This document shows, piece by piece, positions 12,180-64,000 of a DNA stretch of 64,000 nt; the first letter of the stretch is position 1; every line of letters begins with the position of its first letter. This DNA is from Gammaproteobacteria bacterium (GTDB lineage Bacteria; Pseudomonadota; Gammaproteobacteria; Eutrophobiales; Eutrophobiaceae), in assembly GCA_965215365.1 (NCBI GenBank), contig CBDCDS010000003.1, positions 1,280,001-1,344,000 on the forward strand. The letters are read 5' to 3'. The translations under genes and the position numbers were made by a program. Below the pieces are notes generated by a model, which had not been told where the DNA came from, did not search any database, and was given only the letters and a program-made list of their open reading frames with translations.

Positions 12180-12189
12180 AAAACGGAGT

Positions 12190-32327: not shown

Positions 32328-32597
32328 TCAATCGTCATCGGGTTGGGCGGCATAAATCGTCAGGCGCAATTCCGTATCACCAAGCATCTCGTAAACAGGT
32401 CTTCTGCCAGAAAGTCGTTCACTGCGTGCCAGAATAATTGGAACACCGTTCCCTATCAGCCTCGACTGGCTTCGCTGTTGAAACATGCGAGCAAGATAGT
32501 CCGGCGACATGACTCGGTTACTATTACCCACTTTGACTTCGAGATAGGAGTCTTCCCGAAGCCGTATTTTATTGAGCAATTCCTCCTTATCGAACAT
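32328..32597 (-). pseudogene. Internally deleted remnant of an AlbA_2/HATPase_c_4 (RecG-like regulator) gene
   Basis: Three segments resembling distant parts of that family joined in frame: ELLNKIRLREDSYLEVK | VGNSNRVMSPDYLARMFQQRSQSRLI | GNGVPIILARSERLSGRRPVY...LTIYAA. Confidence 0.6.
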
Positions 32598-33462: not shown

Positions 33463-33475
33463 TTTTTACCTCTGT

Positions 33476-35401
<1,926 letters not shown>

Positions 35402-35405
<4 letters not shown>

Positions 35406-35725
35406 GCTGTGAATCTCTGTTTGTAAGCGCTCGTTTCCTGCGGCTGTGCGCGGGTATGAGCAGGCATATAATCGCTTTTCATATTATGCAGGTGCACATG
35501 TTCTCCGGGGCGGATGTCCCGCACGGCAGAACCGATGGGCACGCCATATTTTACGATTTTATCACCCCCGGCTAAGGCGCGTACGGCAACTTTGTGGCCC
35601 AGTTCCACAGCCTCTGTCAGCGTAATGCTTGCTGTTCCTGTCGTGATGACAGCTCCCGCGGCAGACGGCTGGCAACAGACCAGCACGTTGTCTTGCGGGT
35701 GCAACCGGATAAATTTTGATTTCAT
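35402..35725 (-). CDS. SAF-domain small subunit of the UxaA-type dehydratase
   Basis: LHPQDNV...GHKVA...IVKYGVPIG...GEHVHLHN; ATGA overlap with the large subunit. Confidence 0.9.
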
Positions 35726-35750
35726 CTGCGCTTGTCGAGTTGACTGCCGG

Positions 35751-39121: not shown

Positions 39122-39240
39122 GACTCTCATATTTGCTGAACCTGGACAGTCTATTGACTTAGGGCGCGCCGCAATGTACGCTGTTGAGCGTAGCAAGGAC
39201 ACTTCAAACTTACATCCACTGTCCTATCGAGAGGTCGGCC

Positions 39241-41684: not shown

Positions 41685-41836
41685 GGCCACCTCTCACAAA
41701 CACGAGGTGGCCGTGCAGTACAAGGATGTGCTGCCATTTTTAGTCACGTAAGTGACTGAAAATGAAGGAAATGAAAAATCATACTTTTTCATTTCCGTCT
41801 CTAAAAATACCACGGAGGGTATTTTTAGAGGTTACT
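41685..41836. mobile_element. Second copy of the ~153-bp family-B MITE-like element
   Basis: Core near-identical to 7594-7746; begins right after the TAA stop. Confidence 0.85.
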
Positions 41837-41868
41837 ATAAACCCGCAACACTGAGGTAACATGAAGCA

Positions 41869-46350: not shown

Positions 46351-46375
46351 GGTTCATCTCCCTGTAGATGAGGCA

Positions 46376-46404
46376 GCGGTCGCGCGCAAGCGCGGCCGCT
46401 TTTG
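46376..46404 (+). terminator. Hairpin/terminator after the TonB receptor
   Basis: AGCGGTCGCGC-GCAA-GCGCGGCCGCT-TTT. Confidence 0.55.
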
Positions 46405-46433
46405 GGTTGTGTGCAAAAGAGCGTTGCAATCTG

Positions 46434-47954: not shown

Positions 47955-48113
47955 ACCACTCCAACCCGGTGCATTGATAAAACCCATCCTTGCTATTGAA
48001 AAATACAATGAGACCGAGTTTCGTTTTCGCTTGATATCAAATACCGGCTTTGGTCTAATGTCGGTATCTCATATTACCATTACGCTGTGTCGCTGATGTA
48101 GGAGGTAGTTGAA

Positions 48114-49703
48114 ATGTCCTGCGATTCTTGTTCTCTAACCTGTATGGAACGTCTGTTTTTCCGCAATGCCCCGTTGCTATCGGTCGGGTCTTTGGGAAAG
48201 TGGTTATCGGGTCTTGGTCTCGTTATTCTTTTGCAAATCCCGGGTGTGGGTGTTGCAGAGCAAACGGCGCCTCGTTACGAGGCCAACTGGCAGTCGCTGG
48301 ATCAGCGCCCGATCGCGGATTGGTTCGGCGCCGCTAAATTCGGCATATTCATTCACTGGGGCCCGTACTCCGTCCCGGCCTGGTCACCCAAAGGCACTTA
48401 CTCCGAGTGGTATCAGCACTGGATGCAGGGCAAGGCGCTGTTCGGCAATGGTGACTTCGAAGGTGATGAAGTTTATCAGTACCATGTCAAAACCTATGGG
48501 GATGATTTCACTTATTACCAGTTTGCCGATGAATTTACCGCAGACCTGTTCGAGCCGGACGCCTGGGCAAACCTGTTTGAGCAAGCCGGTGCCAGATACG
48601 TGGTCCTGACTTCCAAGCATCACGACGGTTTTACGTTGTGGCCGAACGAGCAAGCCAACGACCAGGGTTTCGCCTGGAATAGCGTGGAGCGAGGGGCGAA
48701 GCGTGACCTGGTGGGTGAATTATCTGCGGCGGTCAAGAAGACACCCCTGAAAATGGGGCTGTACTACTCGTTGTACGAGTGGTATCACCCCTGGTGGCTG
48801 AATGACAAGGAACGTTTTGTCTCAGAGCACTTCCTGCCACAGGCCAAAGATCTGGTGGAGCGCTACCAGCCGGATATCTTGTGGGCGGATGGCGAGTGGG
48901 ACATGGAGGCCGAGAAATGGCGCTCGCCGGAGTTGCTGGCCTGGCTGTTCAACGAATCCTCAGTGAAAGACACCGTCGTCATTAATGACCGCTGGGGGAC
49001 CGACCGCGCGGGGGAAATGTTGCGCGGTCGACACGGCGGCTACTACACTACCGAATATCAGGCCGACGGTGAATTTGACCGCCCCTGGGAAGAGATTCGC
49101 GGCATGGGGCTCTCGTTTGGCTACAACCGCAACGAAGATGCACAGGACTACAACAGTACCCGTACCTTGCTGTTGTTGCTGCTCGATGTGGTCAGTAAGG
49201 GCGGCAATCTACTGCTGAATATCGGCCCTGACCACCGCGGGCGTATTCCACCCATCATGCAGCAGCGGCTGCTGGAGATGGGGGCCTGGCTGAAGGTGAA
49301 TGGTGAGGCCGTTTACGGCACTGAGAAATGGCGTCAGTCGGTGCAATGGTCGGCAGGAGACCGCAACATTGACCTGCCGGACCTCCGCTATATCCCCGGC
49401 GATTACATCCTCAAGCAGACGCTTAATCCCCCTCCCGGCAAAGCGGTGAAAGAACTGTTTTTCACCCATAAGGGGGCAGACCTGTATGCCATATCCCCGA
49501 CCTACCCGAAAGGCAGGTTGGTCATTAAGGGAATCACGCCCACCGAGAGCACCACAATTACCCTGCTTGGCCACGAAAATCCTCTTGAGTACCAGTCAGA
49601 GGAAGGCAATATCATCGTGCAAGTGCCGCCGCTGAGCGTTGATGAATTGCCCTGCCAACATGCCTGGAGTTTCAGGATTACCGGGGTACTCGGCGATTTG
49701 TAA
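48114..49703 (+). CDS. GH29 alpha-L-fucosidase
   Basis: KFGIFIHWG, TSKHHDGF, nucleophile motif LWADGEW, INDRW, GGNLLLNIGP. Confidence 0.95.
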   Translation: MSCDSCSLTCMERLFFRNAPLLSVGSLGKWLSGLGLVILLQIPGVGVAEQTAPRYEANWQSLDQRPIADWFGAAKFGIFIHWGPYSVPAWSPKGTYSEWYQHWMQGKALFGNGDFEGDEVYQYHVKTYGDDFTYYQFADEFTADLFEPDAWANLFEQAGARYVVLTSKHHDGFTLWPNEQANDQGFAWNSVERGAKRDLVGELSAAVKKTPLKMGLYYSLYEWYHPWWLNDKERFVSEHFLPQAKDLVERYQPDILWADGEWDMEAEKWRSPELLAWLFNESSVKDTVVINDRWGTDRAGEMLRGRHGGYYTTEYQADGEFDRPWEEIRGMGLSFGYNRNEDAQDYNSTRTLLLLLLDVVSKGGNLLLNIGPDHRGRIPPIMQQRLLEMGAWLKVNGEAVYGTEKWRQSVQWSAGDRNIDLPDLRYIPGDYILKQTLNPPPGKAVKELFFTHKGADLYAISPTYPKGRLVIKGITPTESTTITLLGHENPLEYQSEEGNIIVQVPPLSVDELPCQHAWSFRITGVLGDL

Positions 49704-49753
49704 GATCCGGTTTGAACGGCTATACTGAACTGAACTGAACTCAACTCAACTGT
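49698..49753 (+). promoter_or_regulatory. sigma70-like promoter followed by a pentanucleotide tandem repeat
   Basis: TTGTAA-N17-TATACT, overlapping ACTGA x3, ACTCA x2, ACTGT (49724-49753). Confidence 0.6.
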
Positions 49754-49764
49754 GGGAGAATACC

Positions 49765-50040
49765 ATGCTTGAACAACTGAATGACTGGGCGCCGTTACTG
49801 ACTATCCTGGTGAGCCTGGGTGGCCTGCAGCTGGGCTTATACCTGGGCCTGCGCACCGATATGCGTGCCTTGGTCGAGGTCCTGGCTGGGGTGCGCGAAC
49901 GTCTCGCGGCCTTAGAAGCGCGCGTCGGTAATTTAGAGACCAGCGTCGGCAATTTAGAGACCCGCGTCGGTAATTTAGAGACCAGCGTCGGCAATTTAGA
50001 GACCCGCGTCGGCCATGTCGAGGCCCACCTAAAAGCATAG
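49765..50040 (+). CDS. Small N-terminal-TM coiled-coil protein with heptad expansion
   Basis: Paralog of 43354-43563; (R/S)VGNLET x4; GGGAG RBS. Confidence 0.8.
   Translation: MLEQLNDWAPLLTILVSLGGLQLGLYLGLRTDMRALVEVLAGVRERLAALEARVGNLETSVGNLETRVGNLETSVGNLETRVGHVEAHLKA
49921..50013 (+). repeat. 21-bp coding tandem repeat (42-bp higher-order unit x2)
   Basis: CGCGTCGGTAATTTAGAGACC / AGCGTCGGCAATTTAGAGACC alternating. Confidence 0.92.
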
Positions 50041-50309
50041 CGGTAGCTATGGTTATGCCCCCCCCCCACAGCGCTTGTTCGTCTTCGGCTGACGACATGT
50101 TGAGGCAGGCGCACCGGCTAGGATGCTGGCCGGTATCTAATCTATTTGATTACCGGCCGGCCAGACCGGGAGCTGCGTCGGGTAATCCTTGCATGGCGCC
50201 AAGCCTCATGCTGTTAGCCACTGCGCTGAGCCGCTATGTGCAGTCGGTGCGGGCGGCCTCGATGGTGAGCCTTCAATAGGCAGGAGCTAAAGCCTTGTCT
50301 GTGATCCGC

Positions 50310-53300
50310 ATGATGTATCGAACGGCAGGCTTTGCGCACCGCCCGGCGCTCGCCGGGTTGCTGCTGTCAGTGGGGGTGGTCCTGGCCGTCTCCGGTCTGC
50401 TCCGGGCCGGGCCCGTTGCAACGCCCGGTGCCCGCCTCACCGCTGGCGACCTGACGGTCTCTATGGACGAGACCGGCCTCATCACCGGCCTGACCGCTCC
50501 GTCCGGGCGCGACTATCACGTGAACGAGCCGCCCACTGCGCTGCTCAGCCTCATTGTTGAAGATAAACCCACCGACCTACCGTCCGCCGGTACGGCCGCC
50601 CACTATCGCCCCCTCCGCTGGCGTTTTACACCCGGGACACCGCAGCTCGGCGAGACCGCGCGCGGCACTTACACGTTTGACTTTGCCGAGCACCTCAGCG
50701 TGACGGTGGCGTTCGTGGAAAAGCCCGGCTATGCCACTCTGGCCGTAACTGCCCTGCACAATCCCGCCGGCAAGGATGTGCGGCATATCTTGTGGGGGCC
50801 GCTCAGTACCTCTATTACCGAGAGTGTCGGCGAGACGGTGGGCGTGGTGCGCAGTCGTGACTTTGCCATCGGCTTATTCGGCACCAATGCCAAGACCTTA
50901 GGCGGCTGGGCGCGCGCATATCCGGCCACGGGGCTCAAATCCTTAGCCGCCGGTGAGGACACCGCCGGGGATGTGCGTACCGTCGCACAGGACTTTGCAA
51001 CCGCCGCGGCGGTGCGCACGGTGCCGGGCAGTATTCTACAAGCCCATACCCAAGACTACACCCAAGGGCGCATGGTGGAGGTGGCGCCCACCGGTGGTCA
51101 GGAAGGGCGCCGCCGGTGGGTACCCGCTCTGACGGGAGAGTTCGCCACAGCCGGGCAACTAGTCGGCTCGCAGGTGGCGTTGTTCGGTGTCGCCGGCACC
51201 GATGCCGCCGCCGTGACGCATGCGTCACGGCGCGAGGCCTTGTATGTCAAGGTGCTGGCGCGCATTGGCGCTATTGAGGTAGGGGAGGGCATGCCCCATC
51301 CGCAGCTCGATAAGGTCTGGGCTAAGCAAGCACTGCGCGCCAATGCGCCGTATTTGCTGTTAGAGGACTTAGACAGTCACAACTTGGACACCGCCTTGCG
51401 CTGGGCTAATGAGCTCGGCTGGGACACGGTCGCTAAAGACGCCTGCTGGGGCGTGTTCGCGCGCGGGGGTGATTTCCCTGTCAGTGACGCCTTCGGCGGC
51501 TCGGACAATGCCTTGCGCTCGGTCATTGAACGCGCCCGCGCCCGACACACCACGCTGGGCGTGGACATCCGCTCGAACTGGTTACCGGCACCCTATGCCA
51601 CGACCCACCTCGGCGGGTTAGCAGCGGCACAACATGCCACCTTAGCCGCACCCGTCACCGCCACGGCCACGACACTGACCGTGGCACCGTTACCGGGCGG
51701 TGATTTGCAGCCCGGGTTCGCCACCACGGGGTACGTGGTCATCGGCACGGAGCTGATGGGTTATACCGAGACCACCCCTGTGGCCGGCAACCTGGTATTG
51801 TCGGGACTCACGCGCGGGGTCGATGCCACCTTAGCCCAGGGCCATGCAGTCGATGCACCGGTCAAGCGGGTGATTCGCAAGACGCAGTGCGGGGAATATC
51901 TGGCCGGCTTGACGCTGATGCGCGGGCGGGTTGCCGAGCGGCTCATCGAGGTACTGGACTTAGGCCTGGGCGGCGTGTCCTTAAGCGGTGCTGAGGCGCT
52001 GGCGGCAGACGGCTACGGTGCGCTGGCGGCGAACCTGGTGATGGACAAAATCTATCGCGCCCTGGCCGACAACGACAACCTCATTACCGAGCTCAGTGTG
52101 CTCACGCCTTATACTTGGCATGTCAACACCCGTGCCGGTGCGGTCAATCAGGACCGGCGCATTTTGTCATCGGGCTTAGCCGCCCCGCAGGTGTCTTATC
52201 CGTGGGGTGCGCAGGTCTCTGCCCGGCGTAATTATCTGGCGCGCCCGATGCTGGGACGCTGGCATATCCCAGACGCCAATGGCTGGCGTTGGGCGCTGGG
52301 CAAGGCCGCCGCGCTCGATGCCGGGTTGGCCTATGTCGGGCGCGTGCGCGATGCGGCCCGGCATGACGCCCCGTTGCGCCGTGAGATTCGCCACTGGCGC
52401 TATGCCGCACTGGCCGGTGCCTTCGATGCGCCCAATCGCTTAGTGATGCAAGAGCGGGGCGCGTATTTTAAGTTAGACCGGGTGCGCCATGCCGGGGCCA
52501 TTGGCCCGACCTGGAAATTATCCGACTGGGCACCGCTCGGCGCCGCCGGCGGGCAGCGCCGCAACAGCCGTTATTTAGCCCCGCAGCTGCGGGGTTTTCC
52601 CACCGCCAACTTAGCGCGTGATGCCGAGGTGACGGTGTCCGGCGCCTTAGCGCCGGAATTTGACGGCGCGCACGCGCTCGATGGGTTCACGGTGACCGGT
52701 CACGATGGCGGTGCCGGGGAATGGGCGCTTGCTGCCGGTGCCCGTGAGAAGTGGATTGAGCTGACCTGGGAGACCCCCCGGCGGGTGCGTGAGATCATAT
52801 TGTTTGACCGCGCCTCCCCGCAGCAGAACGTGCGCGCCGGGAGTTTGACATTGACCCGGGCCGATGGCACCACCACCACGCAGCGGGTCGATGCCTTGCC
52901 GCTGACCGGCGGGGCGAAGCGCATCGCCCTGTCCGACCAAGCGCTGGTCAAGGCGCGTTTCACCCTGCACGCGACCCAGGGTGCCGCCCCGGGCTTAGCA
53001 GAGTTCGCAGTGTTAGGCCCCGCGCCGGTCTATCAGGTTAGCAACTTAGCCACCGGCGCCGTAGTCAGTGGCGTGACAGCCGGTCAGGGCGCGCGCATCA
53101 CTGACGGGGTGATAGCGCCCGGCGCCGAGCCGGCGGCGACACTGACCGGCACTTGGGCACAGTTGGACTTAGGCGGGCTGCATTATATCGGCGGGCTGAG
53201 CGTCTGGCATGCCTTCGGTGACGGGCGGCGCTACCAGGATGTGGTCTTCGAGCTGGCCGACAACCCGGCCTTTACTAACTCGACTATCGTCTTTAACAAC

Positions 53301-56300
53301 GATGCGGACAATTCTCTGGGGCTCGGTGCCGGGACCGACGCCCCGTACACCGAAACTGCCGCCGGCAAGCAGGTGCTGTTCGCCCCGACCCCGGCCCGTT
53401 ACCTGCGACTATGGTCACAGGGCAATACCGTCAACGATGCCAACCACTTAGTGGAAGTGGAAGTCTATGGCACCGGTCACGGCACGGCGACCGCCACGCT
53501 CAGCGCCTCGAGCACCGCGCCCGGGGATCTCCGCGCGGCGATAGACGGCCACCCCGACACCGCCATCGATCTCGGCACCGGCCCACAGTACTTACAGCTT
53601 GACTTAGGCACCCCTCGGCAGGTGAACAGCTTAGTCGTGCTGCGCGAGGGGGACTTGCGCGCCTACCGCAACGTGGTCTATCAGTTATCGAACGACGCCG
53701 ACTTCGCCGACACAGTGACCACGGTGTTTCACAACGACTATGACGCGGTGCACGGCTTGGGCCTCAAAGAGCCGTCCCAAGGCGAGTATGCCGAGACGCC
53801 CAACGGCCACTATGTGCGCTTTGCGCCCCGCCCGGCGCGCTATGTGCGCCTGTATTCCAACGGCTCAGACCGCGACCGCCACAACCGCTATCACGAAGTA
53901 CTGGTGGGCACCGAGCATGCGACCCGGTTGCCCACACCGACGCCGGCCTGGGCACCGGCCGAATCAGCGCAGGCCGACAACACGGCGCGGGCCGACAACG
54001 CAGCGCAGCAGGGCGCCCCGCCCGGCGCCCCAATCCCCGGCCCGGCGGCGGGCGGCGCCGGACTGGGCGCGCGGGCGTTGCTGGGGCCGCGCCAGGATCC
54101 CCCTGGGAAGCTGGTGAGTAACACCGGCGAGGTTGCGAGCAAGACCTTCCGAAACCACATCGCGACAAAATTCACAACGGGCAACTACAGGCGGGGCTAC
54201 GTGATTTCGTCGGTCGGTGTACACCTCGGCTCAGCCTCCCTGCCCTTAGGAACCAGCATTCCCCTGACCGTTAAAATTTTGCGGGGCAGCAGAAACCCCG
54301 GCACTAATGTGGTGGCCGAGCTGGGGGCGCCGGACCGTCTCACTGAGAATGCGGTCAACACCTTTACCGCGCCTGCAAACACAGTGCTGGCCGCCAACAC
54401 GACCTACTTCCTTAGTGTGTCGCCGAAGGGCCTATTAACACGAGCCAACATCCAAGTATCCGCGACCACCTCTGACAGCCAGACGGGTGCGACGGGTTGG
54501 AGCATTGCCAACAGCAGTCGCACCAGCACAAGGGTGCGTGGCAGAGATATCTGGCAGGATGACAACAGCTCTCTCATGTTTGTGATCAAGGGCATCAGCG
54601 CCCCCTTGCGCAAACCCAAGGGTTTTAAGGCAACGCCAGGCAACAGGAAGGTGACGCTGACCTGGACTAACCCGTCCGATAGCACCATCACCAAGTATCA
54701 GTATCGCCAAGGCACGGGCACGACCGTCACCTGGGGCGAGTGGACAAACATTCCCAGAAGTTCGGCCACCACCACCTCACACACCGTGACCGGCCTGGAC
54801 AACGGCACGGCCTACAGCTTTGAAGTGCGCGCCGTGGTCGACACGGAGATCGGTCTGGCCTCGGATGCCGTGACGGCCACGCCGGGCGTCCCCTTGAACT
54901 TCGTCACCTGGCACCTACCCCGTGAAGTGCTTTATTTGAAGGATGCGCCGATATTGGCACCGACGAGACTGCCCCGGGCCGGCAACAACGTGGGCACGGT
55001 GACCTATGCCTTAACACCGGCGCTGCCGACGGGCCTGCAATGGGACGCTAAGGAGCGCACGATTTCAGGCACCCCCACGGTGAACCAGGCGCGCACGCAA
55101 TACACCATGACGGCGACCGAACCTTCAAATGCGAACGCTGTCGACGGCGTCTACACCTTCCACCTGACGGTGGCGGCCGAGGATAACAAGCCCACCTTCG
55201 GCAGTGAGACGCAGGCCGACCTGTTACTGGCAAGAGGCACGGCCATGCCTACCGTCACACTGCCGAAAGCCACGGGCGGTGATGGCACGCTGACCTATCA
55301 GTTATTGCCGTTGAAGTGGAGTAACATGGGCTACAACCAGAACGCGGACCGGGAGAGCAACCAACCCCTGGACTATGCCGGGGTAGCGAACCTGCCGGCA
55401 GGGCTCAGCTTCAATACCACCACCCGCGCGCTGTCGGGCACGCCCACAGCGAACTGGACACGCGCGCTATATACCTTAGTGGCCACGGACGCTGATGGCG
55501 ACACGGCGGGCCTGAACTTCCATGTGGCGGTGGCAAACGCGTTAACCCCGGCCACCAGTTCCAGCACTCTGGAGGTCTGGACGGACGATGCGCTGAGCCA
55601 TGTCAACCGTAATGCCACTAAGCCGGGCTCGCCGTCGACCCGCATTGACTTACATGCGGCGCGCAATGAATATGAGAACGGCCAGATAGTGCTGCGTAGT
55701 GATGCGGATTTGACCATTACCGAAGTGGCGTTTAGTGACCTCACCAGCGGCAGCAACACGATTGCTAAGGCCCACCTTGACTATCGGTTTGTGGAATACC
55801 ACGTGCCGGTGATGCCGACCCGGGCGACCGATTTGCTCTACGCGGCCACTGTTCGTCCTAATCGCCCCGACCCCCTGTCCAATGCTCGCGCCATTATCGT
55901 ACCGGCGAACGTCACCCAACCCATCTTAGTGACGGCGTATGTCCCCAAGGGGCAGGCGGCGGGGACTTATACCGGCGATGTGACGGTCAAGGTCAAGACG
56001 GCGCAGGGAAATCAGACCAAGACCGTGCCCTTGAGCGTGAAGGTCTATGCGGTGCAGATTCCCGATGCCAAGGACAGCGAGTTCTTACAGTACAACTGGA
56101 CCGAGACGAACATGTACTCCGTGCGCAATGATGAGGACATGGGGTTTTCGTACTACGGGATTTATAAGTACTCCGATGACTGGTGGGGCTTAATGGGCAA
56201 CATGGCCGACACCATGTCCAAGCATCGTCAGAACATGACCATTGCCTGGACGGTGGCACTGCTGCGCGACGGCGGCAGTAAGGCCAAGTCCGATGGCACG

Positions 56301-59300
56301 TATGACTGGCAATGGGGGCTGTTCGATAAGTTCATCGACACTTATAACCAGGGTGGCATGTCGCATTTCGGTGGTGGGCATTTGTCGTTCCACTGGGAGG
56401 GCGGCAAACCGCGCAGTTGGGATGCTGCCCGGCATTTCGAGGTGGCGATGCTCGCGCCTGACGCGAACGGTGAGACGCGCATCGGCGGTGCCGTGGTGCC
56501 GACCTCGACGAGCAATGCCGACGACGAGCGCACGGTGGCCCGGGATTGGCTCAATGCTTATCTGCCGGAGCTGGACAAACATATTGCTGCGAAGGGCTTA
56601 CTCGGCGGTGCCAAGCTGCGCGATAAGTGGTTCCAACATCTCGGTGATGAGCCGGGCGGCAGCACTGATATCCAACAATGGGCGTATATGGCAGACACGC
56701 TCAAGGACAACGCGCCCAAGATACGTAATTTAGATGCAGCTCAGACCAGCGTCGGGGGGCTTTTGCAGGCTGCCAATGCGGCCCGGGTGAATGCCTGGAG
56801 TCCTTACCTGATCGAGTTTGACAAGCGCAAAACCTTATTTGCTGACCAGCAGGCGCTCGACAAGCCGGTGTTTGTCTATGTGATGTACACCCCCAGGGAC
56901 AAGAACGACTATAACCGCCTGTTCAACAACCATCTGGTATCGACTTCCACGCTGTATTGGTATTACTTCCGTCATAACTTAGACGGCAATCTGCACTGGG
57001 CACTGAACGTCTGGTCTATTACCGCGGGAGATGCTTCCAAGGGCGATACCCACATCGTCTATCCGGACATCGGCGGGCGCACCCTGCGCTCATCGCTGCG
57101 CTATGAAGCCGAGCGCGGCGGGCTGGAGGACTTAGAGCTATTAAAGCTGTATAAGAAGACCTCTGCCAGCGCGGCTAATACACTGGCTGAGAAGCTCACC
57201 ACCACGACCCGCACCAACCACAACAAGGATGTGTCAACGTACCGCACTGTGCGTGCAGAGTTGCTGAGTGCCGCCACCAATCCCCCAGAGCTGTCGATTA
57301 ACAGCGTAGCGGTATTGGAGGGCCGCACCGCGCGTTTTACGGTGAGCCTGTCGAAGGCGCACACCGCCAACGTCACGGTGCAGGCGGCCACCTCGAACGG
57401 CACGGCCACGGCGGGCAGCGACTACACGGCTAAGACGGCCACACTGACCATTGCCGTCGGCAGCACGAGCGCCACGTTTGACGTGGCCACCAGCGCTGAC
57501 GACGAAGTAGAAGGCACCGAGACCTTCGAGGTGACCCTGAGCGGCCCAACGAATGCCACGCTCAAGGAGGACGGTGACACCGGAGTCGGCGCCCTGCACG
57601 ACGGCGACGGCGGGACGCGCTTCGATGTGCCTCAGAATCACTCGGACGTCACCCGTGGTGGGGGGGCTTGGACGTGGGATTTTGGCCGCAACCCCCCCAA
57701 ATTTGACAACTACGGTAAAAATGGCTATGTCACCGGAGCTAACGGCGCCTATCTGGAATACACCTTTACCGGCACCGGGGTGGACTTTATCTCACAGGTT
57801 GGCCCTAACCACGGGGATGTGGATATCCATATCGACGGCACCAAGATGGCTACCGTGAACTTGTACCAAAGCGGCAGCGTCACCGGCAAGTACGTGGCCT
57901 ACAGCGTGCGCGACCTGACCGCCGGGGAGCATACCATCCGGGTGACTAAGCGGTCTGCTACCTGGCTCATCGTGGACGCCTTCTCTGTGTACGGCGCGCC
58001 CTTGAGCTTCGTTACTTGGCACCTGCCCCCTGAGGTGCGCTATGTGAAGGATACGGCGATATTGGCGCCGACCCGACTGCCTCGGGTCGGCAACGGCGCG
58101 GGGACGGTGACTTATGCCCTGACACCGACACCGCCGACAGGCCTGCAATGGGACGCTAAGGAACGCACGATTTCAGGCACTCCCACGGTGAATAAAGCGC
58201 GCACGCAATACACCATGACGGCGACCGATGCGATAGGTGGTACCAAGGCCTTTACCTTCCACCTGACGGTGGCTAACAAGGACAACAAGCCGACCTTCGG
58301 CACTGCCAAGCAAACCGACCTGTTGCTGAAGAAGGACTCAGCTAGGAGCGTGACACTACCGGCGGCCACGGGCGGCGATGGCACGTTGACTTATCAGTTA
58401 TTGCCGTTGAAGTGGAGTAACATGGGCTACAACCAGGGGGTACGAGAGAACAACCAACCCCTGGACTACGCCGGGGTGGCCAACCTGCCGGCGGGTGTGA
58501 GCTTCGATGCCACCACCCGCGTCCTCTCGGGCACGCCCACGGCGAACTGGACGCGCGCCTTGTACACGTTGGTGGCCACGGATGCCGACGGCGACACGGC
58601 GACGCTGAGCTTCCATGTGGCGGTAGTGACCGCACTGACCCCGGCTACCGGCTCGAGCACCCTGGAGGTATGGACGGACGATGCGCTCAAGCATGTCAAC
58701 CGCGATGCCACCAAGCCGTCCTCGCCGTCAACGGCCATCGCCTTACATGCGGCGCGCAATGAATATGAGAGCGGCCAGATAGTGCTACGCAGTGATGCGG
58801 ATTTGACCATCACCGAGGTGGCGTTTGACGACCTCACCGATGGCAGCAACACGATTGCTAAGACCCACCTTGACTACCGGTTTGTAGAATACCACGTGCC
58901 GGTGATGCCGACTCGGACGACCAAGCTGCTCTACCCGGCTGCTAATCGCCCCGATCCGCTATCGAATGCCCGCTCGATTGTGGTGCCGGCGAACGTCACC
59001 CAACCCATCTTAGTGACGGCATACATCCCCAAGTGGCAGGCGGCGGGCACTTATACCGGCGATGTGACGGTGAAGGTCAACACGGTCCAGGGGGTTAAGA
59101 CCAAAACTGTGTCGCTGAGCGTCAAGGTGTACCCCGTAGGGATCCCCGATGCCAAGGACAGCGAGTTCTTGCAGTACAACTGGACCGAGACGAACATGTA
59201 CTCCATCCGCAATGAAGAGGACATGGGGCGCTCGTACTACGGGATTGACAAGTACTCCGATGACTGGTGGGGCCTGATGGAAAACATGGCCGATACCATG

Positions 59301-62300
59301 TCGACGTATCGTCAGAACATGGCCATTGCCTGGACGGTGGGCTTGCTGCGCGATGGCGGCAGTAAGGCCAAGGCCGATGGCACTTATGAGTGGGACTGGC
59401 GGCTGTTCGACAAGTACATCGAGACTTATAACCAGCGCGGCATGAGCCACTTCGGCGGCGGGCATTTGGCATTGCACTGGACCGGCAAGCCCGGGAGTTA
59501 CAATGGTTATATTGACTTCCAAGTGGCGCTGCTGTCTCGTGACGCAGACGGTGAGACGCGCATCGCCGGTGCCCTGGTGCCGACCTCAATAGCCAATGCT
59601 GACGAGCGCACCGTTGCCCGCGATTGGTTGAATGATTATTTGCCAGAATTGGACACCCATATTGCGGCCAAGACCTTAGTGGGCGGCGCCAAGCTGCGCG
59701 CGCAATGGTTTCAGCATATCGCCGATGAGCCGCACGCGGGCAGCGAAATCGAACAATGGGTGTATATGGCGGACGCACTCAAGGCCAAGGCGCCGAACAT
59801 GCGTAACCTTGATGCGGCGCTGCATGGCATACCGGAACTGGTGAAGAACGCAGACAAGGTGACGGCCTGGAGTCCTTACATCGACAGCTTTGGCCAGAGA
59901 AAAGACTTCTTTGCCCAACAGCAAGCGGCCGGTAAGCCGGTGTTTATCTACGTGTTGGAGATTCCCAGCGGGCAGAATGACCTCAACCGCCTGTTCAAAA
60001 ACTACCTGGTATCGACCACCACGCTCTATTGGCATTACTTCCGCCATAATGCGGACGGCAATCTACACTGGGCGCTGAACGTCTGGTCCATTGCGTCGTC
60101 GAGCGGCAATGAAGGCGATACCCACATCGTGTACCCGGACATTGGCGGGCGCACCCTGCGCTCATCGTTGCGCTATGAAGCCGAGCGGGCCGGGTTGGAG
60201 GACTTGGAGTTGTTAAAGCTTTACAAGGCGGAATCTTCGGACGCGGCCAACACGCTGGCCGACAAGCTGTTAAGCCCCCCAGGCGCCGAGAACCGACAAG
60301 ACCATAATAAAAATTCGTCAGAGTACCGCGCCGTGCGTCAGGAGCTGCTGGAGGCGCTGCCAGCGGTACCGCTGCCGCCGTTGCCTAAGCCCACGGGTTT
60401 TACGGTGACTCCGGGCGGAGGTGAAGTGACGCTCGCCTGGTCTGAGCCTGCCGATAACGGTATCACCAAATATCAGTTCCGTCAGGGCGACGGCGTCCCC
60501 GTTACCTGGGGCGATTGGACGGACATTCCCAACAGCGATGCCGATACCACCTCGCACACGGTGACCGGCCTGACCAGCGGCGTGGCCTACAGCTTCGAGG
60601 TGCGCGCCGTGAGGGGGGCAACGTCCGGCTCGGCCACGGCTGCCTTGACCGTCATGCCGACAGCCCCCCAACTGGTGAGTAACACCGGCGAAGCTGTTGC
60701 GAGCAAGACCTTCCGAAACCACATCGCGACAAAATTCAGAACGGGCAAAGGCAGTGCGGGCTACGTGATTTCGTCGGTCGGTGTACGCCTCGGCTCAGCC
60801 TCCCTGCCCTTAGGAACCAGCATTCCCCTGACCGTTAAAATTTTGCGGGGCAGCAGAAACCCCGGCACTAATGTGGTGGCCGAGCTGGGGGCGCCGGACC
60901 GTCTCACTGAGAATGCGGTCAACACCTTTACCGCGCCTGCAAACACAGTGCTGGCCGCCAACACGACCTACTTCCTTAGTGTGTCGCCGAAGCTCCCATT
61001 AACACGAGCCTACATCCAAGTATCCGCGACCACCTCTGACAGCCAGACGGGTGCGACGGGTTGGAGCATTGCCAACAGCAGTCGCACCAGCACAAGGGTG
61101 CGTGGCAGAGATATCTGGCAGGATGACAACAGCTCTCTCATGTTTGTGATCAAAGGTACCAACCACAGCAATGCGAAACCCACAGAGCTTTCAGCGATAC
61201 CGGGTAACGGCAAGGTGACGCTCAGTTGGGCTGATCCCTCTGATATTACCATTACCAAGTATCAGTATCGCCAAGGCACGGGCACGACCGTCACCTGGGG
61301 CGAGTGGACAAACATTCCCAGCAGTTCGGCCACCACCACCTCACACACCGTGACCGGCCTGGCCAACGGCACGGCTTACAGCTTTGAAGTGCGCGCCGTG
61401 GGAGGGGAGGTGACCGGTCCGGCATCAGATGTTGTGTCCGCCACACCGGTCGTGCCCACTCTGAACTTCGTCACCTGGCACCTGCCCCCTGAGCTGCGCT
61501 ATGTGAGGTATAGGGCTATCCTGGCGCCGACCCGGCTGCCGCGGATCGATGGCGGCACGGGCACGGTGACTTATACCTTAACACCGGCGCTGCCCACGGG
61601 CCTGAAGTGGGACGCTAAGGAACGCACGATTTCAGGCACCCCCACCGCAGATAAGGCGCGCACGCAATACACCATGACGGCGACCGATGCGGCCAGTCGC
61701 ACTGCCACTTATACCTTCCACCTGACGGTCGCCGCCGCCGACAAAAAGCCCACCTTCGGCAGTAAGACGCAGGCCGACCTGCTGCTGAAAAGAGGCACGG
61801 CCATGCCTACCGTCACGCTACCGGCGGCCAGTAGCGGCGACGGCACGCTGACCTATCAGTTGTTGCCATTGCGGTGGACGAATCAGAGCTATAACAAAGG
61901 AGTGCGGGAGACCAACGCACCCTTGGACTACGCCGGGGAGGCCAACCTGCCGGCCGGGCTCGGTTTCAACACCGGCACGCGGGTACTTTCAGGCACTCCC
62001 ACCGAGAATTGGACACGCGCCCTTTATACCTTAGTCGCCACAGACACCGATGGCGACACGGCGGCGCTGAACTTCCATGTGGCGGTGGTGGATGCGTTGG
62101 CCCCGGCCACCAGCTCTAGCGCTTTGAATATATGGACGGACGATGCGCTCAACCGTGTGAACCGCGACGCCACCCAGCCGAACTCGCCGTCCAAGGCCAT
62201 TGCCTTACATGCGGTGCGCAACGAGTATGAGAGCGGCCAGGTAGTCCTGCGCAGCAATGCGGACTTGACCATTACCGAGGTGGCGTTTACCGACCTCACC

Positions 62301-64000
62301 AGCGGCAGCAACACGATTGCCAAGGCTAATCTTAACTACCGGTTTGTGGAATACCACGCGCCGCTGATGACCACCCGGGCGGCGCCCAAGCTGATTTACC
62401 CGGCTTCTGAGAAGCCGGATCCGCTGTCGAATGCCCGTACCATTGTGGTGCCGGCGAACGTCACCCAACCCATCTTAGTGACGGCGTATGTCCCCAAGGG
62501 GCAGGCGGCGGGGACCTACACCGGCACGGTGACGGTCAAGACCACCCAGGGGGACAAGACGGTGTCTTTGAGCGTCAAGGTCTATCCGGTGGAGATTCCC
62601 GATGCCAAGGACAGCGAGTTTAAGCAGTACAACTGGACCGAGACCAACATGTACTCCATCCGCAATGAAGAGGACATGGGCTTTTCGTACTACGGGATTG
62701 ACAAGTACTCTGATGATTGGTGGGAATTGATGGAGAACATGGCCGATACCATGTCGACGTATCGCCAGAACATGGCGATTGTGTGGGCGGTGGGTCTGCT
62801 GCGCGATGGCGGCAGTAAGGCCAAGGCCGATGGCACTTATGAGTGGGACTGGCGGCTGTTCGACAAGTACATCGAGACTTATAACCAGCGCGGTATGAGC
62901 CACTTCGGCGGCGGGCATTTGTCGTTGCACTGGACCGGTAAGCCCGGGAGTAACAATGTGCTTAATAATTTTCAGGTGATGCGCTTAGCGCCCGATGCCG
63001 ATGGTGAGACGCGCCTTGCAGGCGGGTTTGTGCCGGTCTCGGCGGACGGTACCCCGCCTGCTTACACGACCGCCAAAGACACACAGGCCACCACCGCGGC
63101 CGATGCCGAAGCGAGCAAGGCCGCCGGGAAGTGGTTGGAGGCTTACCTGACGGCCTTGAACACCCGCGCTTCGGCCACAACCCTAGCCAACGGCAAGAAG
63201 CTGGTCGATCACTGGTTTCAACATCTCGGCGATGAGCCGGAAGGCTCGCAGGGGCCGCAATGGGCGTATCTGGCCGATCAGGTCAAAGCCCATGCACCGC
63301 GCATGCGCAACATCGATGCGATCGGGTCGTCGGGTGCGAAAGTCCTGGTACAGGCTGCGAATGCGGCCAGGGTGACGGCCTGGAGTCCGTTCATTGCTGA
63401 GATTGATAACAGAAGAATGTTCTTCGCCGGCCAGCAACTCGCTGGCAAGCCGGTGTTTGCCTACATTGCGCTGGTGCCCGTGCACCCGTCCTTTAACCGC
63501 ATGTTCGCCAACGAACTGATCTCGACTTCCACGCTGTATTGGTATTGGTTCCGCCATAATCTCGACGGCTATTTGCACTGGGCGTTGAACGTGTGGTCGC
63601 TGGGGACGGGCAGTGGTTATGAAGGCGATACCCACATTGTCTATCCGGACATTGGCGGGCGCACGCTGCGCTCGTCGTTGCGCTATGAGGCCGAGCGCGG
63701 CGGGCTGGAGGACCTGGAGATATTGAAGCGCTATCAGGCGGCGGCGCCGGGCGCGGCCTATGCGCTGGCCGATGAGTTGGTCGACCCGGACGGCATCGGC
63801 GGTCTGATTACTCACACCAAGGATGTATCGTTGTACCGCACGGTGCGCACAGAGTTGTTGGAGAAAGCCGCCGCACAGGTCCCGGAAGTCGCGGTGGCGC
63901 CCCCGGTGCTGTCGATTAACAGCGTGGCGGTCACGGAGGGGGCGCCAGCGTATTTTGCGGTGCGCTCATCGCAGGTCCACACGCAACACTTACAGGTGAC
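50310..64000 (+). CDS. Giant secreted multidomain glycoside hydrolase/adhesin (>4560 aa, runs off the right edge)
   Basis: The same frame reads as protein at the start (MMYRTAGFAHRPALAGLLLSVGVVLAV), at internal checkpoints (56646, 59724, 63231) and at 63951+, and the ORF track lists no stop-terminated ORF in this frame. Contains discoidin/F5-8C-like, FN3, He_PIG, Calx-beta and three GH123/DUF4091-like modules. In-frame TTG 50295 and GTG 50301 are alternative starts after AGGAG. Confidence 0.9.
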   Translation, partial: MMYRTAGFAHRPALAGLLLSVGVVLAVSGLLRAGPVATPGARLTAGDLTVSMDETGLITGLTAPSGRDYHVNEPPTALLSLIVEDKPTDLPSAGTAAHYRPLRWRFTPGTPQLGETARGTYTFDFAEHLSVTVAFVEKPGYATLAVTALHNPAGKDVRHILWGPLSTSITESVGETVGVVRSRDFAIGLFGTNAKTLGGWARAYPATGLKSLAAGEDTAGDVRTVAQDFATAAAVRTVPGSILQAHTQDYTQGRMVEVAPTGGQEGRRRWVPALTGEFATAGQLVGSQVALFGVAGTDAAAVTHASRREALYVKVLARIGAIEVGEGMPHPQLDKVWAKQALRANAPYLLLEDLDSHNLDTALRWANELGWDTVAKDACWGVFARGGDFPVSDAFGGSDNALRSVIERARARHTTLGVDIRSNWLPAPYATTHLGGLAAAQHATLAAPVTATATTLTVAPLPGGDLQPGFATTGYVVIGTELMGYTETTPVAGNLVLSGLTRGVDATLAQGHAVDAPVKRVIRKTQCGEYLAGLTLMRGRVAERLIEVLDLGLGGVSLSGAEALAADGYGALAANLVMDKIYRALADNDNLITELSVLTPYTWHVNTRAGAVNQDRRILSSGLAAPQVSYPWGAQVSARRNYLARPMLGRWHIPDANGWRWALGKAAALDAGLAYVGRVRDAARHDAPLRREIRHWRYAALAGAFDAPNRLVMQERGAYFKLDRVRHAGAIGPTWKLSDWAPLGAAGGQRRNSRYLAPQLRGFPTANLARDAEVTVSGALAPEFDGAHALDGFTVTGHDGGAGEWALAAGAREKWIELTWETPRRVREIILFDRASPQQNVRAGSLTLTRADGTTTTQRVDALPLTGGAKRIALSDQALVKARFTLHATQGAAPGLAEFAVLGPAPVYQVSNLATGAVVSGVTAGQGARITDGVIAPGAEPAATLTGTWAQLDLGGLHYIGGLSVWHAFGDGRRYQDVVFELADNPAFTNSTIVFNNDADNSLGLGAGTDAPYTETAAGKQVLFAPTPARYLRLWSQGNTVNDANHLVEVEVYGTGHGTATATLSASSTAPGDLRAAIDGHPDTAIDLGTGPQYLQLDLGTPRQVNSLVVLREGDLRAYRNVVYQLSNDADFADTVTTVFHNDYDAVHGLGLKEPSQGEYAETPNGHYVRFAPRPARYVRLYSNGSDRDRHNRYHEVLVGTEHATRLPTPTPAWAPAESAQADNTARADNAAQQGAPPGAPIPGPAAGGAGLGARALLGPRQDPPGKLVSNTGEVASKTFRNHIATKFTTGNYRRGYVISSVGVHLGSASLPLGTSIPLTVKILRGSRNPGTNVVAELGAPDRLTENAVNTFTAPANTVLAANTTYFLSVSPKGLLTRANIQVSATTSDSQTGATGWSIANSSRTSTRVRGRDIWQDDNSSLMFVIKGISAPLRKPKGFKATPGNRKVTLTWTNPSDSTITKYQYRQGTGTTVTWGEWTNIPRSSATTTSHTVTGLDNGTAYSFEVRAVVDTEIGLASDAVTATPGVPLNFVTWHLPREVLYLKDAPILAPTRLPRAGNNVGTVTYALTPALPTGLQWDAKERTISGTPTVNQARTQYTMTATEPSNANAVDGVYTFHLTVAAEDNKPTFGSETQADLLLARGTAMPTVTLPKATGGDGTLTYQLLPLKWSNMGYNQNADRESNQPLDYAGVANLPAGLSFNTTTRALSGTPTANWTRALYTLVATDADGDTAGLNFHVAVANALTPATSSSTLEVWTDDALSHVNRNATKPGSPSTRIDLHAARNEYENGQIVLRSDADLTITEVAFSDLTSGSNTIAKAHLDYRFVEYHVPVMPTRATDLLYAATVRPNRPDPLSNARAIIVPANVTQPILVTAYVPKGQAAGTYTGDVTVKVKTAQGNQTKTVPLSVKVYAVQIPDAKDSEFLQYNWTETNMYSVRNDEDMGFSYYGIYKYSDDWWGLMGNMADTMSKHRQNMTIAWTVALLRDGGSKAKSDGTYDWQWGLFDKFIDTYNQGGMSHFGGGHLSFHWEGGKPRSWDAARHFEVAMLAPDANGETRIGGAVVPTSTSNADDERTVARDWLNAYLPELDKHIAAKGLLGGAKLRDKWFQHLGDEPGGSTDIQQWAYMADTLKDNAPKIRNLDAAQTSVGGLLQAANAARVNAWSPYLIEFDKRKTLFADQQALDKPVFVYVMYTPRDKNDYNRLFNNHLVSTSTLYWYYFRHNLDGNLHWALNVWSITAGDASKGDTHIVYPDIGGRTLRSSLRYEAERGGLEDLELLKLYKKTSASAANTLAEKLTTTTRTNHNKDVSTYRTVRAELLSAATNPPELSINSVAVLEGRTARFTVSLSKAHTANVTVQAATSNGTATAGSDYTAKTATLTIAVGSTSATFDVATSADDEVEGTETFEVTLSGPTNATLKEDGDTGVGALHDGDGGTRFDVPQNHSDVTRGGGAWTWDFGRNPPKFDNYGKNGYVTGANGAYLEYTFTGTGVDFISQVGPNHGDVDIHIDGTKMATVNLYQSGSVTGKYVAYSVRDLTAGEHTIRVTKRSATWLIVDAFSVYGAPLSFVTWHLPPEVRYVKDTAILAPTRLPRVGNGAGTVTYALTPTPPTGLQWDAKERTISGTPTVNKARTQYTMTATDAIGGTKAFTFHLTVANKDNKPTFGTAKQTDLLLKKDSARSVTLPAATGGDGTLTYQLLPLKWSNMGYNQGVRENNQPLDYAGVANLPAGVSFDATTRVLSGTPTANWTRALYTLVATDADGDTATLSFHVAVVTALTPATGSSTLEVWTDDALKHVNRDATKPSSPSTAIALHAARNEYESGQIVLRSDADLTITEVAFDDLTDGSNTIAKTHLDYRFVEYHVPVMPTRTTKLLYPAANRPDPLSNARSIVVPANVTQPILVTAYIPKWQAAGTYTGDVTVKVNTVQGVKTKTVSLSVKVYPVGIPDAKDSEFLQYNWTETNMYSIRNEEDMGRSYYGIDKYSDDWWGLMENMADTMSTYRQNMAIAWTVGLLRDGGSKAKADGTYEWDWRLFDKYIETYNQRGMSHFGGGHLALHWTGKPGSYNGYIDFQVALLSRDADGETRIAGALVPTSIANADERTVARDWLNDYLPELDTHIAAKTLVGGAKLRAQWFQHIADEPHAGSEIEQWVYMADALKAKAPNMRNLDAALHGIPELVKNADKVTAWSPYIDSFGQRKDFFAQQQAAGKPVFIYVLEIPSGQNDLNRLFKNYLVSTTTLYWHYFRHNADGNLHWALNVWSIASSSGNEGDTHIVYPDIGGRTLRSSLRYEAERAGLEDLELLKLYKAESSDAANTLADKLLSPPGAENRQDHNKNSSEYRAVRQELLEALPAVPLPPLPKPTGFTVTPGGGEVTLAWSEPADNGITKYQFRQGDGVPVTWGDWTDIPNSDADTTSHTVTGLTSGVAYSFEVRAVRGATSGSATAALTVMPTAPQLVSNTGEAVASKTFRNHIATKFRTGKGSAGYVISSVGVRLGSASLPLGTSIPLTVKILRGSRNPGTNVVAELGAPDRLTENAVNTFTAPANTVLAANTTYFLSVSPKLPLTRAYIQVSATTSDSQTGATGWSIANSSRTSTRVRGRDIWQDDNSSLMFVIKGTNHSNAKPTELSAIPGNGKVTLSWADPSDITITKYQYRQGTGTTVTWGEWTNIPSSSATTTSHTVTGLANGTAYSFEVRAVGGEVTGPASDVVSATPVVPTLNFVTWHLPPELRYVRYRAILAPTRLPRIDGGTGTVTYTLTPALPTGLKWDAKERTISGTPTADKARTQYTMTATDAASRTATYTFHLTVAAADKKPTFGSKTQADLLLKRGTAMPTVTLPAASSGDGTLTYQLLPLRWTNQSYNKGVRETNAPLDYAGEANLPAGLGFNTGTRVLSGTPTENWTRALYTLVATDTDGDTAALNFHVAVVDALAPATSSSALNIWTDDALNRVNRDATQPNSPSKAIALHAVRNEYESGQVVLRSNADLTITEVAFTDLTSGSNTIAKANLNYRFVEYHAPLMTTRAAPKLIYPASEKPDPLSNARTIVVPANVTQPILVTAYVPKGQAAGTYTGTVTVKTTQGDKTVSLSVKVYPVEIPDAKDSEFKQYNWTETNMYSIRNEEDMGFSYYGIDKYSDDWWELMENMADTMSTYRQNMAIVWAVGLLRDGGSKAKADGTYEWDWRLFDKYIETYNQRGMSHFGGGHLSLHWTGKPGSNNVLNNFQVMRLAPDADGETRLAGGFVPVSADGTPPAYTTAKDTQATTAADAEASKAAGKWLEAYLTALNTRASATTLANGKKLVDHWFQHLGDEPEGSQGPQWAYLADQVKAHAPRMRNIDAIGSSGAKVLVQAANAARVTAWSPFIAEIDNRRMFFAGQQLAGKPVFAYIALVPVHPSFNRMFANELISTSTLYWYWFRHNLDGYLHWALNVWSLGTGSGYEGDTHIVYPDIGGRTLRSSLRYEAERGGLEDLEILKRYQAAAPGAAYALADELVDPDGIGGLITHTKDVSLYRTVRTELLEKAAAQVPEVAVAPPVLSINSVAVTEGAPAYFAVRSSQVHTQHLQV

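Follow-up and report, generated by a model that had tools for sequence, protein, structure and literature searches.

The stretch of DNA analysed here, 64,000 nucleotides of contig C3 (C3:1280001-1344000; hereafter the window) in the genome of a gammaproteobacterium of the family Eutrophobiaceae (GenBank assembly GCA_965215365.1; G000 below), contains the first part of what we read as one 55.5-kb gene for a 1.94-MDa multi-enzyme protein predicted to be exported, an overall reading to which we give a probability of about 0.68. On this reading the giant protein would carry nine glycoside hydrolase family 123 (GH123) modules of about five types, amplified inside G000 from one ancestor and acting as retaining beta-N-acetylgalactosaminidases by a substrate-assisted mechanism, in which the Asp of an Asp-Glu pair would position the 2-acetamido group and the Glu would serve as acid/base. 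The nearest enzyme to the modules is NgaDssm, a member of 'Group 3' that sets free both N-acetylgalactosamine (GalNAc) and galactosyl-GalNAc (Gal-GalNAc). A long tether would present many slightly different active sites together with sugar-binding domains, such that the cell could bind and strip polymers or glycoconjugates bearing beta-GalNAc, and the released products would pass through TonB-dependent receptors to the galactose/GalNAc catabolic genes of the genome. Export would most likely proceed by Sec and then by the type II system encoded directly downstream, the least certain step of the proposal.

A single open frame of 18,502 codons

The frame is open on the + strand from window position 50295 to the end of the window, 4,568 codons with the 3' side still open, as an initial annotation made from the letters of the window alone had recognised. 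Extending the contig and translating further, which that annotation had suggested as a check, carries the frame through another 13,934 codons to a stop at C3:1385801-1385803 (gene end C3:1385803). Its estimate of more than 4,560 amino acids (aa) and three modules fell well short of the gene, since the frame translated in the whole genome yields 18,502 aa and nine modules. At 55,509 nt the gene takes up 2.04% of the 2.73-Mb genome (three contigs, 97.6% complete) and is the longest open frame in it, the runner-up having 4,970 codons; the computed mass of the product is 1,937 kDa (1.94 MDa) and its computed pI 5.15. The annotation opened the gene at 50310, where there is indeed an in-frame ATG, but we place the opening five codons earlier, at a TTG (50295-50297, + strand) that follows the Shine-Dalgarno sequence AGGAG (50282-50286) at 8-nt spacing. 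An in-frame TAG lies upstream of this TTG at 50277-50279, and in the record of a paralog described below the gene caller chose a GTG two codons after the TTG position. Among the open reading frames (ORFs) listed in other frames within window 48000-64000, the longest has 218 aa.

We are highly confident that this frame is a real single gene. The contig is without any N, and all 18,502 codons are open. It is very improbable, in our judgement, that the ORF is inflated or chimeric, with repeats having misled the assembler and the true gene being shorter, poorer in modules or divided into several genes. Such an error might be suspected from the DNA identity of twelve units of the C-terminal stalk over 10,080 bp, but the 840-bp unit is frame-neutral, so that its copy number leaves the reading frame intact, and a copy-number error would alter the length of the gene and not its nature. 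It might also be suspected from modules 5 and 7, which share 99.8% DNA identity (three differences, all non-synonymous); the other modules, however, differ from one another by 6-26% in DNA and are thus easily distinguished, and not collapsed or cloned copies. Modules 5 and 7 sit in a 3.57-kb duplication that is 92.6% identical overall, which suggests that the near-identity of the two modules arose by recent conversion. The latter figure comes from a direct comparison of segments, used instead of a self-BLAST of the first 39 kb that returned one repeat pair only. Finally, there are many joints in public short-read contigs along the first 20 kb, but the only one traced, from 3801 to 17744 on the region of aa 1-6666, is the exact junction of the paralog, and the offsets of all repeats that were traced are divisible by 3; later repeats within this ORF are the probable source of the remaining joints. 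Frames of 13-14 thousand aa stand at the equivalent place in two congeners, one a single-contig genome and the other a single-contig record, which also argues against inflation.

Public data agree with the N-terminal part of the frame. Words of window 50295-60294 are present in seven public runs from four studies, with no RNA datasets listed among the runs matching this interval, and public contigs from four runs (three studies) cover aa 1-6666 in 30, 30, 30 and 28 of 30 bins. The best-covering run may be the source sample and is therefore not independent support. One public contig has an in-frame GGC insertion relative to the giant gene, and third codon positions account for 23 of the 40 listed differences (217 in all; binomial p 0.0014).

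GH123 modules, scaffold and head

Domains were assigned by scanning 75 tiles against Pfam (E up to 1e-4; aa 1-13,733 and 17,133-18,502), together with profiles of our own and NCBIfam. The three modules inside the window lie on the + strand at 55572-57296 (module 1, aa 1760-2334), 58665-60377 (module 2, aa 2791-3361) and 62127-63890 (module 3, aa 3945-4532), with their Asp-Glu codons at 56646-56651, 59724-59729 and 63231-63236; the initial annotation had placed the modules within about 20 nt of these positions and the Asp codons (56646, 59724, 63231) exactly. The signature motifs that it listed occur once per module and each nine times in the full ORF, so that it covered the first three of nine modules. 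Its assignment to GH123/DUF4091 is borne out by PF22680 (Glyco_hydro_123_N_2) and PF13320 (GH123_cat; best E 5.2e-28, cut-off 23.1 bits), both above cut-off in 9/9 modules, and by the match of sequence and fold to NgaDssm. In a PDB sequence search module 1 matches 8k2j (NgaDssm) over its full length at E 1.7e-33, with QHLGDEP falling on QHLADEP, and BvGH123 follows at E ~8e-13. For module 1 a 30-row alignment yielded a model (predicted local distance difference test, pLDDT, 88; predicted template-modelling score, pTM, 0.91) with an N-terminal beta-sandwich and a (beta/alpha)8 barrel that can be superposed on solved GH123 structures: Foldseek ranks 1-21 are all of the GH123 family, with template-modelling (TM) scores of 0.62-0.79 and 8k2j the best (TM 0.79/0.86), after which the scores fall to about 0.3. 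Modules 2-9 are 68-94% identical to module 1, and the nine together form about five sequence types (1/4/6/8, which are 91-94% identical; 9, which is 84% identical to those; 2; 3; and 5/7), with variation highest in a loop about 40 residues ahead of the Asp-Glu pair.

That pair is present in all copies, as the annotation had said of the first three: W[FI]QHxxDE occurs in 9/9 modules, aligned on the DE of 8k2j, and both modules of the paralog keep it as well. Among 149 homologues the catalytic columns hold D in 142 and E in 144, and 19 columns show a conservation of at least 90%; 18 of these, D and E among them, are retained by all nine modules. The accessible text of PMC11087588 describes 8K2J (NgaDssm) as a 'Group 3' GH123 enzyme from a deep-sea sediment metagenome, retaining, which releases GalNAc and Gal-beta1-3GalNAc, and assigns to the Asp of the DE motif the task of stabilising the 2-acetamido group, and to the Glu the role of acid/base. 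For the related NgaLy it lists D95, W115, Y392, G427, W431, Y466 and R478 as conserved residues needed for stability or substrate recognition, the W115A protein being insoluble and the Ala mutant of the recognition Trp having lost much activity (PMC11087588). Going by the order of motifs, the equivalents of D95, Y392, G427, Y466 and R478 appear to be kept in 9/9 modules; the 'QPIW' column, which is Leu in all nine, would correspond to W115, and an Arg in the 'LHW' motif of module 9 would replace the substrate-recognition Trp W431. We think it likely that at least most of the modules are catalytically active on beta-GalNAc.

The modules also appear to have been maintained by selection. In each of the 35 informative module pairs the ratio of non-synonymous to synonymous substitution rates (dN/dS) falls within 0.19-0.35, and dS reaches 0.77 at most. 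Such values bear on the possibility that the protein is mainly an adhesin, its GH123 modules being lectin-like, inactive or barely active, and serving multivalent attachment to GalNAc-bearing surfaces. They speak of constraint and hence against that possibility, though they are blind to the distinction between binding and catalysis. The scaffold, with its Ig, FN3 and Calx-beta domains and 18-unit stalk, is typical of giant adhesins, and in the parts scanned no enzyme could be recognised in the syntenic giant of the congener G006; every module has Leu where 108 of 149 homologues share a Trp, and module 9 is without the 'LHW' Trp. The retention of Asp-Glu in the nine modules and both paralog modules, and of 18 of the 19 most conserved columns, points the other way, as do catabolic genes in G000 that could use the released sugars, and we consider a mainly adhesive function improbable.

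The array of modules seems to be rare and of local origin. A search of 1.84 billion representative proteins gave 1,927 matches to module 1 at E up to 1e-3, the closest being the paralog in G000 itself (4,149 aa, two modules, 70% identity) and the next, at 41% identity, belonging to a cluster that includes a Colwellia 'DUF4091 domain-containing protein'. One module per protein, which the annotation had called the norm, holds for 149 of the 150 best of these 1,927 representatives, and the exception is again the paralog; a search restricted to proteins of 1,009-2,880 aa gave 11 matches, all at most 33% identical, for each of which the Pfam field names GH123 families without copy numbers. At the DNA level no GH123 module was found in 40 relatives (22 congeneric, several of them single-contig) other than one scrap at E 4.5e-4, and a sample of 400 genomes of the class contained 1 match to the module, at 28% identity. 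The open literature, with supplements and subscription journals outside the search, yielded no tandem GH123, no multi-module GH123 wording and no comparable same-family array. In a tree the 11 modules of the giant and its paralog form one clade with a support of 100/100, sister to the Colwellia-type cluster, and the second module of the paralog nests among the modules of the giant, which points to a single ancestor that was amplified inside the genome, with exchange between giant and paralog. The G+C content at in-frame third codon positions (GC3) of the modules is host-like (0.72-0.77, against a genome background of 0.69 +/- 0.08) and so gives no compositional sign of recent transfer.

The paralog (C3:1680137-1692586) has the same leader, head and discoidin domains as the giant and two cassettes of He_PIG and GH123 domains, and the DNA identity of the two genes is 97.7% along their initial 3.8 kb together with some 150 bp of upstream sequence. 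Its C-terminal end is low-complexity, rich in Ala, Pro and Arg, and has the appearance of a run-off.

The domain order given by the initial annotation and its adhesin-like scaffold both stood up to the Pfam tiles and our own profiles. Residues 1-41 (50295-50417, + strand) form a leader picked out by a Kyte-Doolittle scan, a candidate Sec-type signal or signal anchor: a basic n-region precedes the hydrophobic residues 17-41, the only strongly hydrophobic stretch within the N-terminal 17,800 residues, and a structure model predicts a helix at 16-35. Two windows reach at least 1.8 in all 18,502 aa, and that of the leader peaks at 2.42. Behind the head domain (aa 40-760; 50412-52574, +) come a DUF7402 domain (aa 770-910; PF24135, E 2.9e-16) and a pair of discoidin (F5/8-type-C) domains (aa 930-1048 and 1064-1195; PF00754, E 3.7e-13, the first copy found with our own profile), all three of galactose-binding type, which together span 52602-53879 (+). 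A linker leads from these to the domain that the annotation knew by its 'LVSNTG' motif (aa 1268-1435; 54096-54599, +), which is the choice-of-anchor R domain of NCBIfam (NF041539, E 2.4e-20, scoring 73 bits where the cut-off is 30) and occurs in three copies across the entire ORF. An FN3 domain (aa 1436-1530) and two He_PIG domains (aa 1531-1755) fill 54600-55559 (+) ahead of module 1. Two He_PIG Ig domains likewise precede the module in 9/9 cases, and the spacers between cassettes are FN3, Calx-beta, choice-of-anchor R and carbohydrate-binding-module-like (CBM-like) domains. Thus modules 1 and 2 are separated by a Calx-beta domain, a CBM-like beta-sandwich (CE2_N-like, with a score near the Pfam cut-off) and two He_PIG domains (57297-58664, +), and modules 2 and 3 by FN3, choice-of-anchor R, FN3 and two He_PIG domains (60378-62126, +); after module 3 a Calx-beta domain begins at 63900 and is cut by the window edge at 64000 (+).

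Past the window the frame continues with modules 4-9, a mixed Ig/FN3/Calx region, 18 stalk units, Calx-beta domains and a 134-aa tail. In the mixed region Calx-beta, FN3 and He_PIG domains and the third choice-of-anchor R domain lie within aa 11,710-13,066. The stalk makes up the C-terminal third of the protein, as 18 tandem units of 275-283 aa (about 280), 12 of them identical, each with a weak Ca_tandemer-like part, a He_PIG domain above cut-off and a weak Big_3_5-like part, or about three Ig-like domains. Neither cohesin nor dockerin is among the Pfam matches of the 75 tiles. The annotation's term 'cellulosome-like' is apt as a functional analogy but not as a description of structure, in that cohesin and dockerin are missing and the enzymes are covalently joined.

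The head may hold a further enzyme: at about even odds, we see in it a candidate for a tenth domain of glycosidase-like type, belonging to an undescribed family. It matches no Pfam or NCBIfam family and, with a 6-row or a 47-row profile, no PDB sequence. The genome collection nevertheless contains 313 relatives, 24-32% identical across some 700 aa, in Streptomyces, Nonomuraea, Kribbella, Arenibacter, Chitinophaga and Cyclobacterium and also in Rikenellaceae, the phyla represented being Actinomycetota, Bacteroidota, Gemmatimonadota, Planctomycetota and Armatimonadota. The 47-row alignment (A3) shows invariant or near-invariant acidic residues such as E447, D525, E528 and E579, 17 of the 47 members have weak matches to a TIM-barrel family, and one source labels a relative 'alpha-galactosidase-like'. 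Foldseek uniformly returns GH129, GH101, GH36 and GH97 enzymes (E down to 1.7e-7, TM about 0.2) for a model built from the 6-row alignment, but because that model is poor (pLDDT 52) these matches are only a lead. Kinship with GH123 was considered and rejected (hhalign against the GH123 profile, probability 0.5%), as were matches in a named-family atlas, which scored 0.85-0.86 and so under the trusted range.

Export route and gene family

We think it quite probable that the protein is located outside the cell or on its surface. Eighty nt past the giant stop lies a gene (C3:1385883-1389038) for a 1,051-aa RTX/PPC protein with a PPC domain, at least 9 RTX repeat stretches and no obvious Sec leader, and from 3.3 kb past the stop follow gspC, D, E, F, G, J, K, L and M, co-oriented and with short gaps, to which the cluster adds a pseudopilin-like ORF with a prepilin N-methylation motif. 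The GspD-type secretin beside the giant gene is the only one found in G000. This linkage points to type II secretion as the export route, although we would place the chance that it is the true route a little under even. Should the Gsp system next door export the giant, no other type II substrate would come near it in size.

The same protein might instead leave the cell by another route, such as a type I system encoded on contig C1, vesicles or lysis, and be aimed at GalNAc-containing envelope or matrix polymers of other microbes instead of host or dissolved glycans, a target already proposed for giants of Omnitrophota. Giant Gram-negative adhesins are known to use type I secretion, the RTX protein is encoded next door, and contig C1 holds a true HlyD homologue (363 bits), the only HlyD above cut-off in G000. 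The hydrophobic, putatively Sec-type leader argues against type I export, however, as do the lack of RTX repeats in the giant, the absence of type I secretion genes within 20 kb upstream or 15 kb downstream of its gene, and the conservation of the order giant-RTX-gsp in three genomes. As for the target, giant proteins encoded beside type II loci and glycoside hydrolases have been linked to attack on prey cell walls in the accessible text of two reports (10.1101/2023.11.21.568195, 10.64898/2026.06.07.730766). On balance we find this combination of another route and a microbial target unlikely, if the most serious competitor to export by Sec and the type II system.

The three genomes that share this gene order are G000 and two congeners, G003 and G006. 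Close orthologues of the adjoining secretin occur only in G006 (90%) and G003 (74%); of the other congeners, ten have a secretin match of 35-38% only and nine have no match at E up to 1e-50. In both, an orthologue of the RTX/PPC protein (76% identical in G006, 59% in G003) directly precedes the gsp genes, so that its position between giant and gspC is kept. The giant frame of G003 has 13,397 codons (C1:1424928-1465121 of its single-contig genome), and that of G006 has 14,032 and wraps the ends of a single-contig record. Compared with the giant of G000, the 1,200-aa head region is 74% (G006) and 54% (G003) identical and the last ~480 aa are 58% and 44% identical, with a different payload in between. 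GH123 is found in neither; the G003 giant carries FG-GAP repeats, DUF5703_N joined to a catalytic part that is GH95-like, a set of 15 repeats containing Calx and 17 matches of stalk type. The payload of the G006 giant is mostly Ig-like, Big_12, FN3 and Calx-beta domains being accompanied by a 680-aa block without a family (aa 4457-5137). Each of these genomes carries a second copy of the head domain elsewhere.

Shared ends and neighbours with differing payloads mean that this gene family keeps its ends and neighbours and varies its middle. We speculate, tentatively and with the odds rather against it, that the giant belongs to a family linked to type II secretion, in which a conserved head and a Calx-beta tail enclose a species-specific, swappable catalytic middle, and that the GH123 cassette was amplified here; as part of the same speculation, one acquired cassette would have diversified into a covalent, single-chain counterpart of the cellulosome for beta-GalNAc polymers.

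Several observations weigh against a single exported multi-enzyme protein of this size and function. With regard to assembly, 12 consecutive 840-bp stalk units are identical in DNA over 10,080 bp, and because they make up 12 of the 18 units the unit number depends on the assembler; furthermore, the public contigs compared are short, cover aa 1-6666 only and include no single record across several modules. With regard to catalysis, 9/9 modules have Leu at the 'QPIW' position, where 108 of 149 homologues have W, and module 9 has Arg at the 'LHW' position, where 134 of 149 have W; the specificity is extrapolated since no characterised enzyme is more than 41% identical. With regard to export, hydropathy reveals no C-terminal membrane segment, Pfam and NCBIfam recognise no sorting signal, and no RTX repeats were found, HemolysinCabind being unmatched in the tiles (aa 1-13,733 and 17,133-18,502) and, at E up to 1, in the final 473 aa, a negative that covers RTX repeats and that a type I signal without them would escape. 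A 1.9-MDa protein would also be far bigger than any type II substrate known to us. Lastly, the directly neighbouring catabolic genes fit fucose and sulfate esters, not GalNAc.

Known systems and flanking genes

The giant combines known kinds of protein, namely GH123 enzymes, giant surface proteins and carbohydrate-active enzymes with several catalytic domains, and the searches made found the same architecture nowhere else. Glycosidases normally carry one catalytic domain, and where they are clustered this is usually non-covalent, in cellulosomes. NgaDssm (PDB 8K2J) resembles the modules in its beta-sandwich and (beta/alpha)8 barrel, its DE motif and the retaining, substrate-assisted mechanism that the accessible text reports (PMC11087588), but it is a single module, crystallised as a chain of about 530-540 residues that is ~25% identical to module 1, whereas the giant has nine modules in one chain, each behind two He_PIG domains and with Leu in place of a widely conserved Trp. 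BvGH123 (5L7R), CpNga123 (5FQE) and NgaP share the Pfam families, the fold and the DE pair, yet are more distant (E ~8e-13, TM ~0.70-0.74) and all single-module; these classical enzymes are described as releasing monosaccharides only (PMC11087588, accessible text).

Adhesins of the LapA, SiiE and MpIBP type are like the giant in megadalton size, near-identical Ig-like arrays, Calx-beta domains and acidic pI. The giant differs from them in having a putative Sec-type leader, no RTX repeats and no neighbouring type I genes, and in that two thirds of it are enzyme cassettes. SiiE, for scale, has 5,559 aa according to the accessible part of 10.64898/2026.06.07.730766. Giants of Omnitrophota exceed 10,000 aa, have repeated Pfam domains that include enzymes, are encoded at loci bordered by genes for type II secretion and for glycoside hydrolases, and have been proposed to serve attachment and carbohydrate breakdown (10.1101/2023.11.21.568195, 10.64898/2026.06.07.730766). 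They belong to another phylum, and the accessible text of these reports mentions no array of one glycoside hydrolase family; conversely, the giant described here is without transmembrane blocks, and the SecA-like and peptidase domains described in the accessible text of 10.1101/2023.11.21.568195 were not found in the parts scanned. Huge bacterial genes had been assigned by earlier work, according to PMC11573180, to two functional groups, surface proteins and nonribosomal peptide or polyketide synthases. Enzymes of the CelA type from Caldicellulosiruptor have two catalytic domains and have on that account already been termed rare (PMC6892212, accessible text). Together with cellulosomes and 'mucinolysomes' (PMC12997984, accessible text), CelA-type enzymes share with the giant the principle of holding several active sites and binding modules together so as to act on one polymer. 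Cellulosomes, however, assemble non-covalently through cohesin and dockerin, and the giant joins nine modules of the same family covalently, along with a possible tenth domain.

If the reading is right, nine divergent copies of one glycosidase family, kept by selection on a single 1.94-MDa chain, would amount to a novel design for a polymer-degrading machine. G000 has 13 GH123 catalytic domains in 2.7 Mb, a number that would point to beta-GalNAc-rich polymers as a major resource for a gammaproteobacterium with a small genome. For work on specificity the modules would also provide five naturally occurring sequence variants from a GH123 subgroup that has hardly been studied, and the comparison with two congeners could serve as a natural experiment in which payloads are exchanged while ends and secretion neighbourhood persist. 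The ~700-aa head, with its 313 relatives in polysaccharide-degrading lineages, would be by itself a candidate new glycosidase family.

Upstream of the giant gene and in the same orientation (+) lie genes for a TonB-dependent receptor (43813-46350), a sulfatase (46368-47954) and a GH29 alpha-L-fucosidase (48114-49703). Before these, window 32587-37648 (-) and 40509-43326 (+) encode an aldo-keto reductase, an amidohydrolase_2 protein, an altronate/galactarate dehydratase-like protein, a short-chain dehydrogenase/reductase, a fumarylacetoacetate (FAA) hydrolase and an aldehyde dehydrogenase, a set which we take to be of the kinds used in non-phosphorylative L-fucose catabolism. The initial annotation had the giant feeding an adjacent locus for uptake and catabolism; what adjoins it is this receptor, sulfatase and fucosidase and the genes of the fucose-catabolism type. 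The glycans, which the annotation took for those of a host, may be of animal, algal or microbial origin. About 1.17 Mb away, genes for a GH20 enzyme, a 2-keto-3-deoxy-6-phosphogluconate-type (KDPG-type) aldolase, DgoK, RpiR, GH53 and GH2 proteins and a 1,411-aa TonB receptor accompany two stand-alone GH123 genes. One of the latter (C3:106887-108767) is split into a 189-aa ORF with a He_PIG match and a 376-aa ORF with a partial GH123_cat match; a TAG lies inside the GH123_cat match, and the gene may be a pseudogene.

Amid the sugar-catabolism genes of the window are also a gene for a GmrSD-type restriction endonuclease (30573-32285, -) and two adjoining AAA_22 ATPase genes (37805-40518, +). Between the fucosidase gene and the giant gene sits a 91-codon ORF (49765-50040, +), and a promoter scan of the interval from this small ORF to the giant gene start gave no + strand promoter site. 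A run of ten C (50058-50067) lies just past the ORF, 228-237 nt 5' of the giant gene start, and is not present at the paralog because only about 150 bp of upstream sequence are common to the two genes. The product of the small ORF has a hydrophobic N-terminus, and four tandem 21-nt repeats within it encode VGNLET(S/R).

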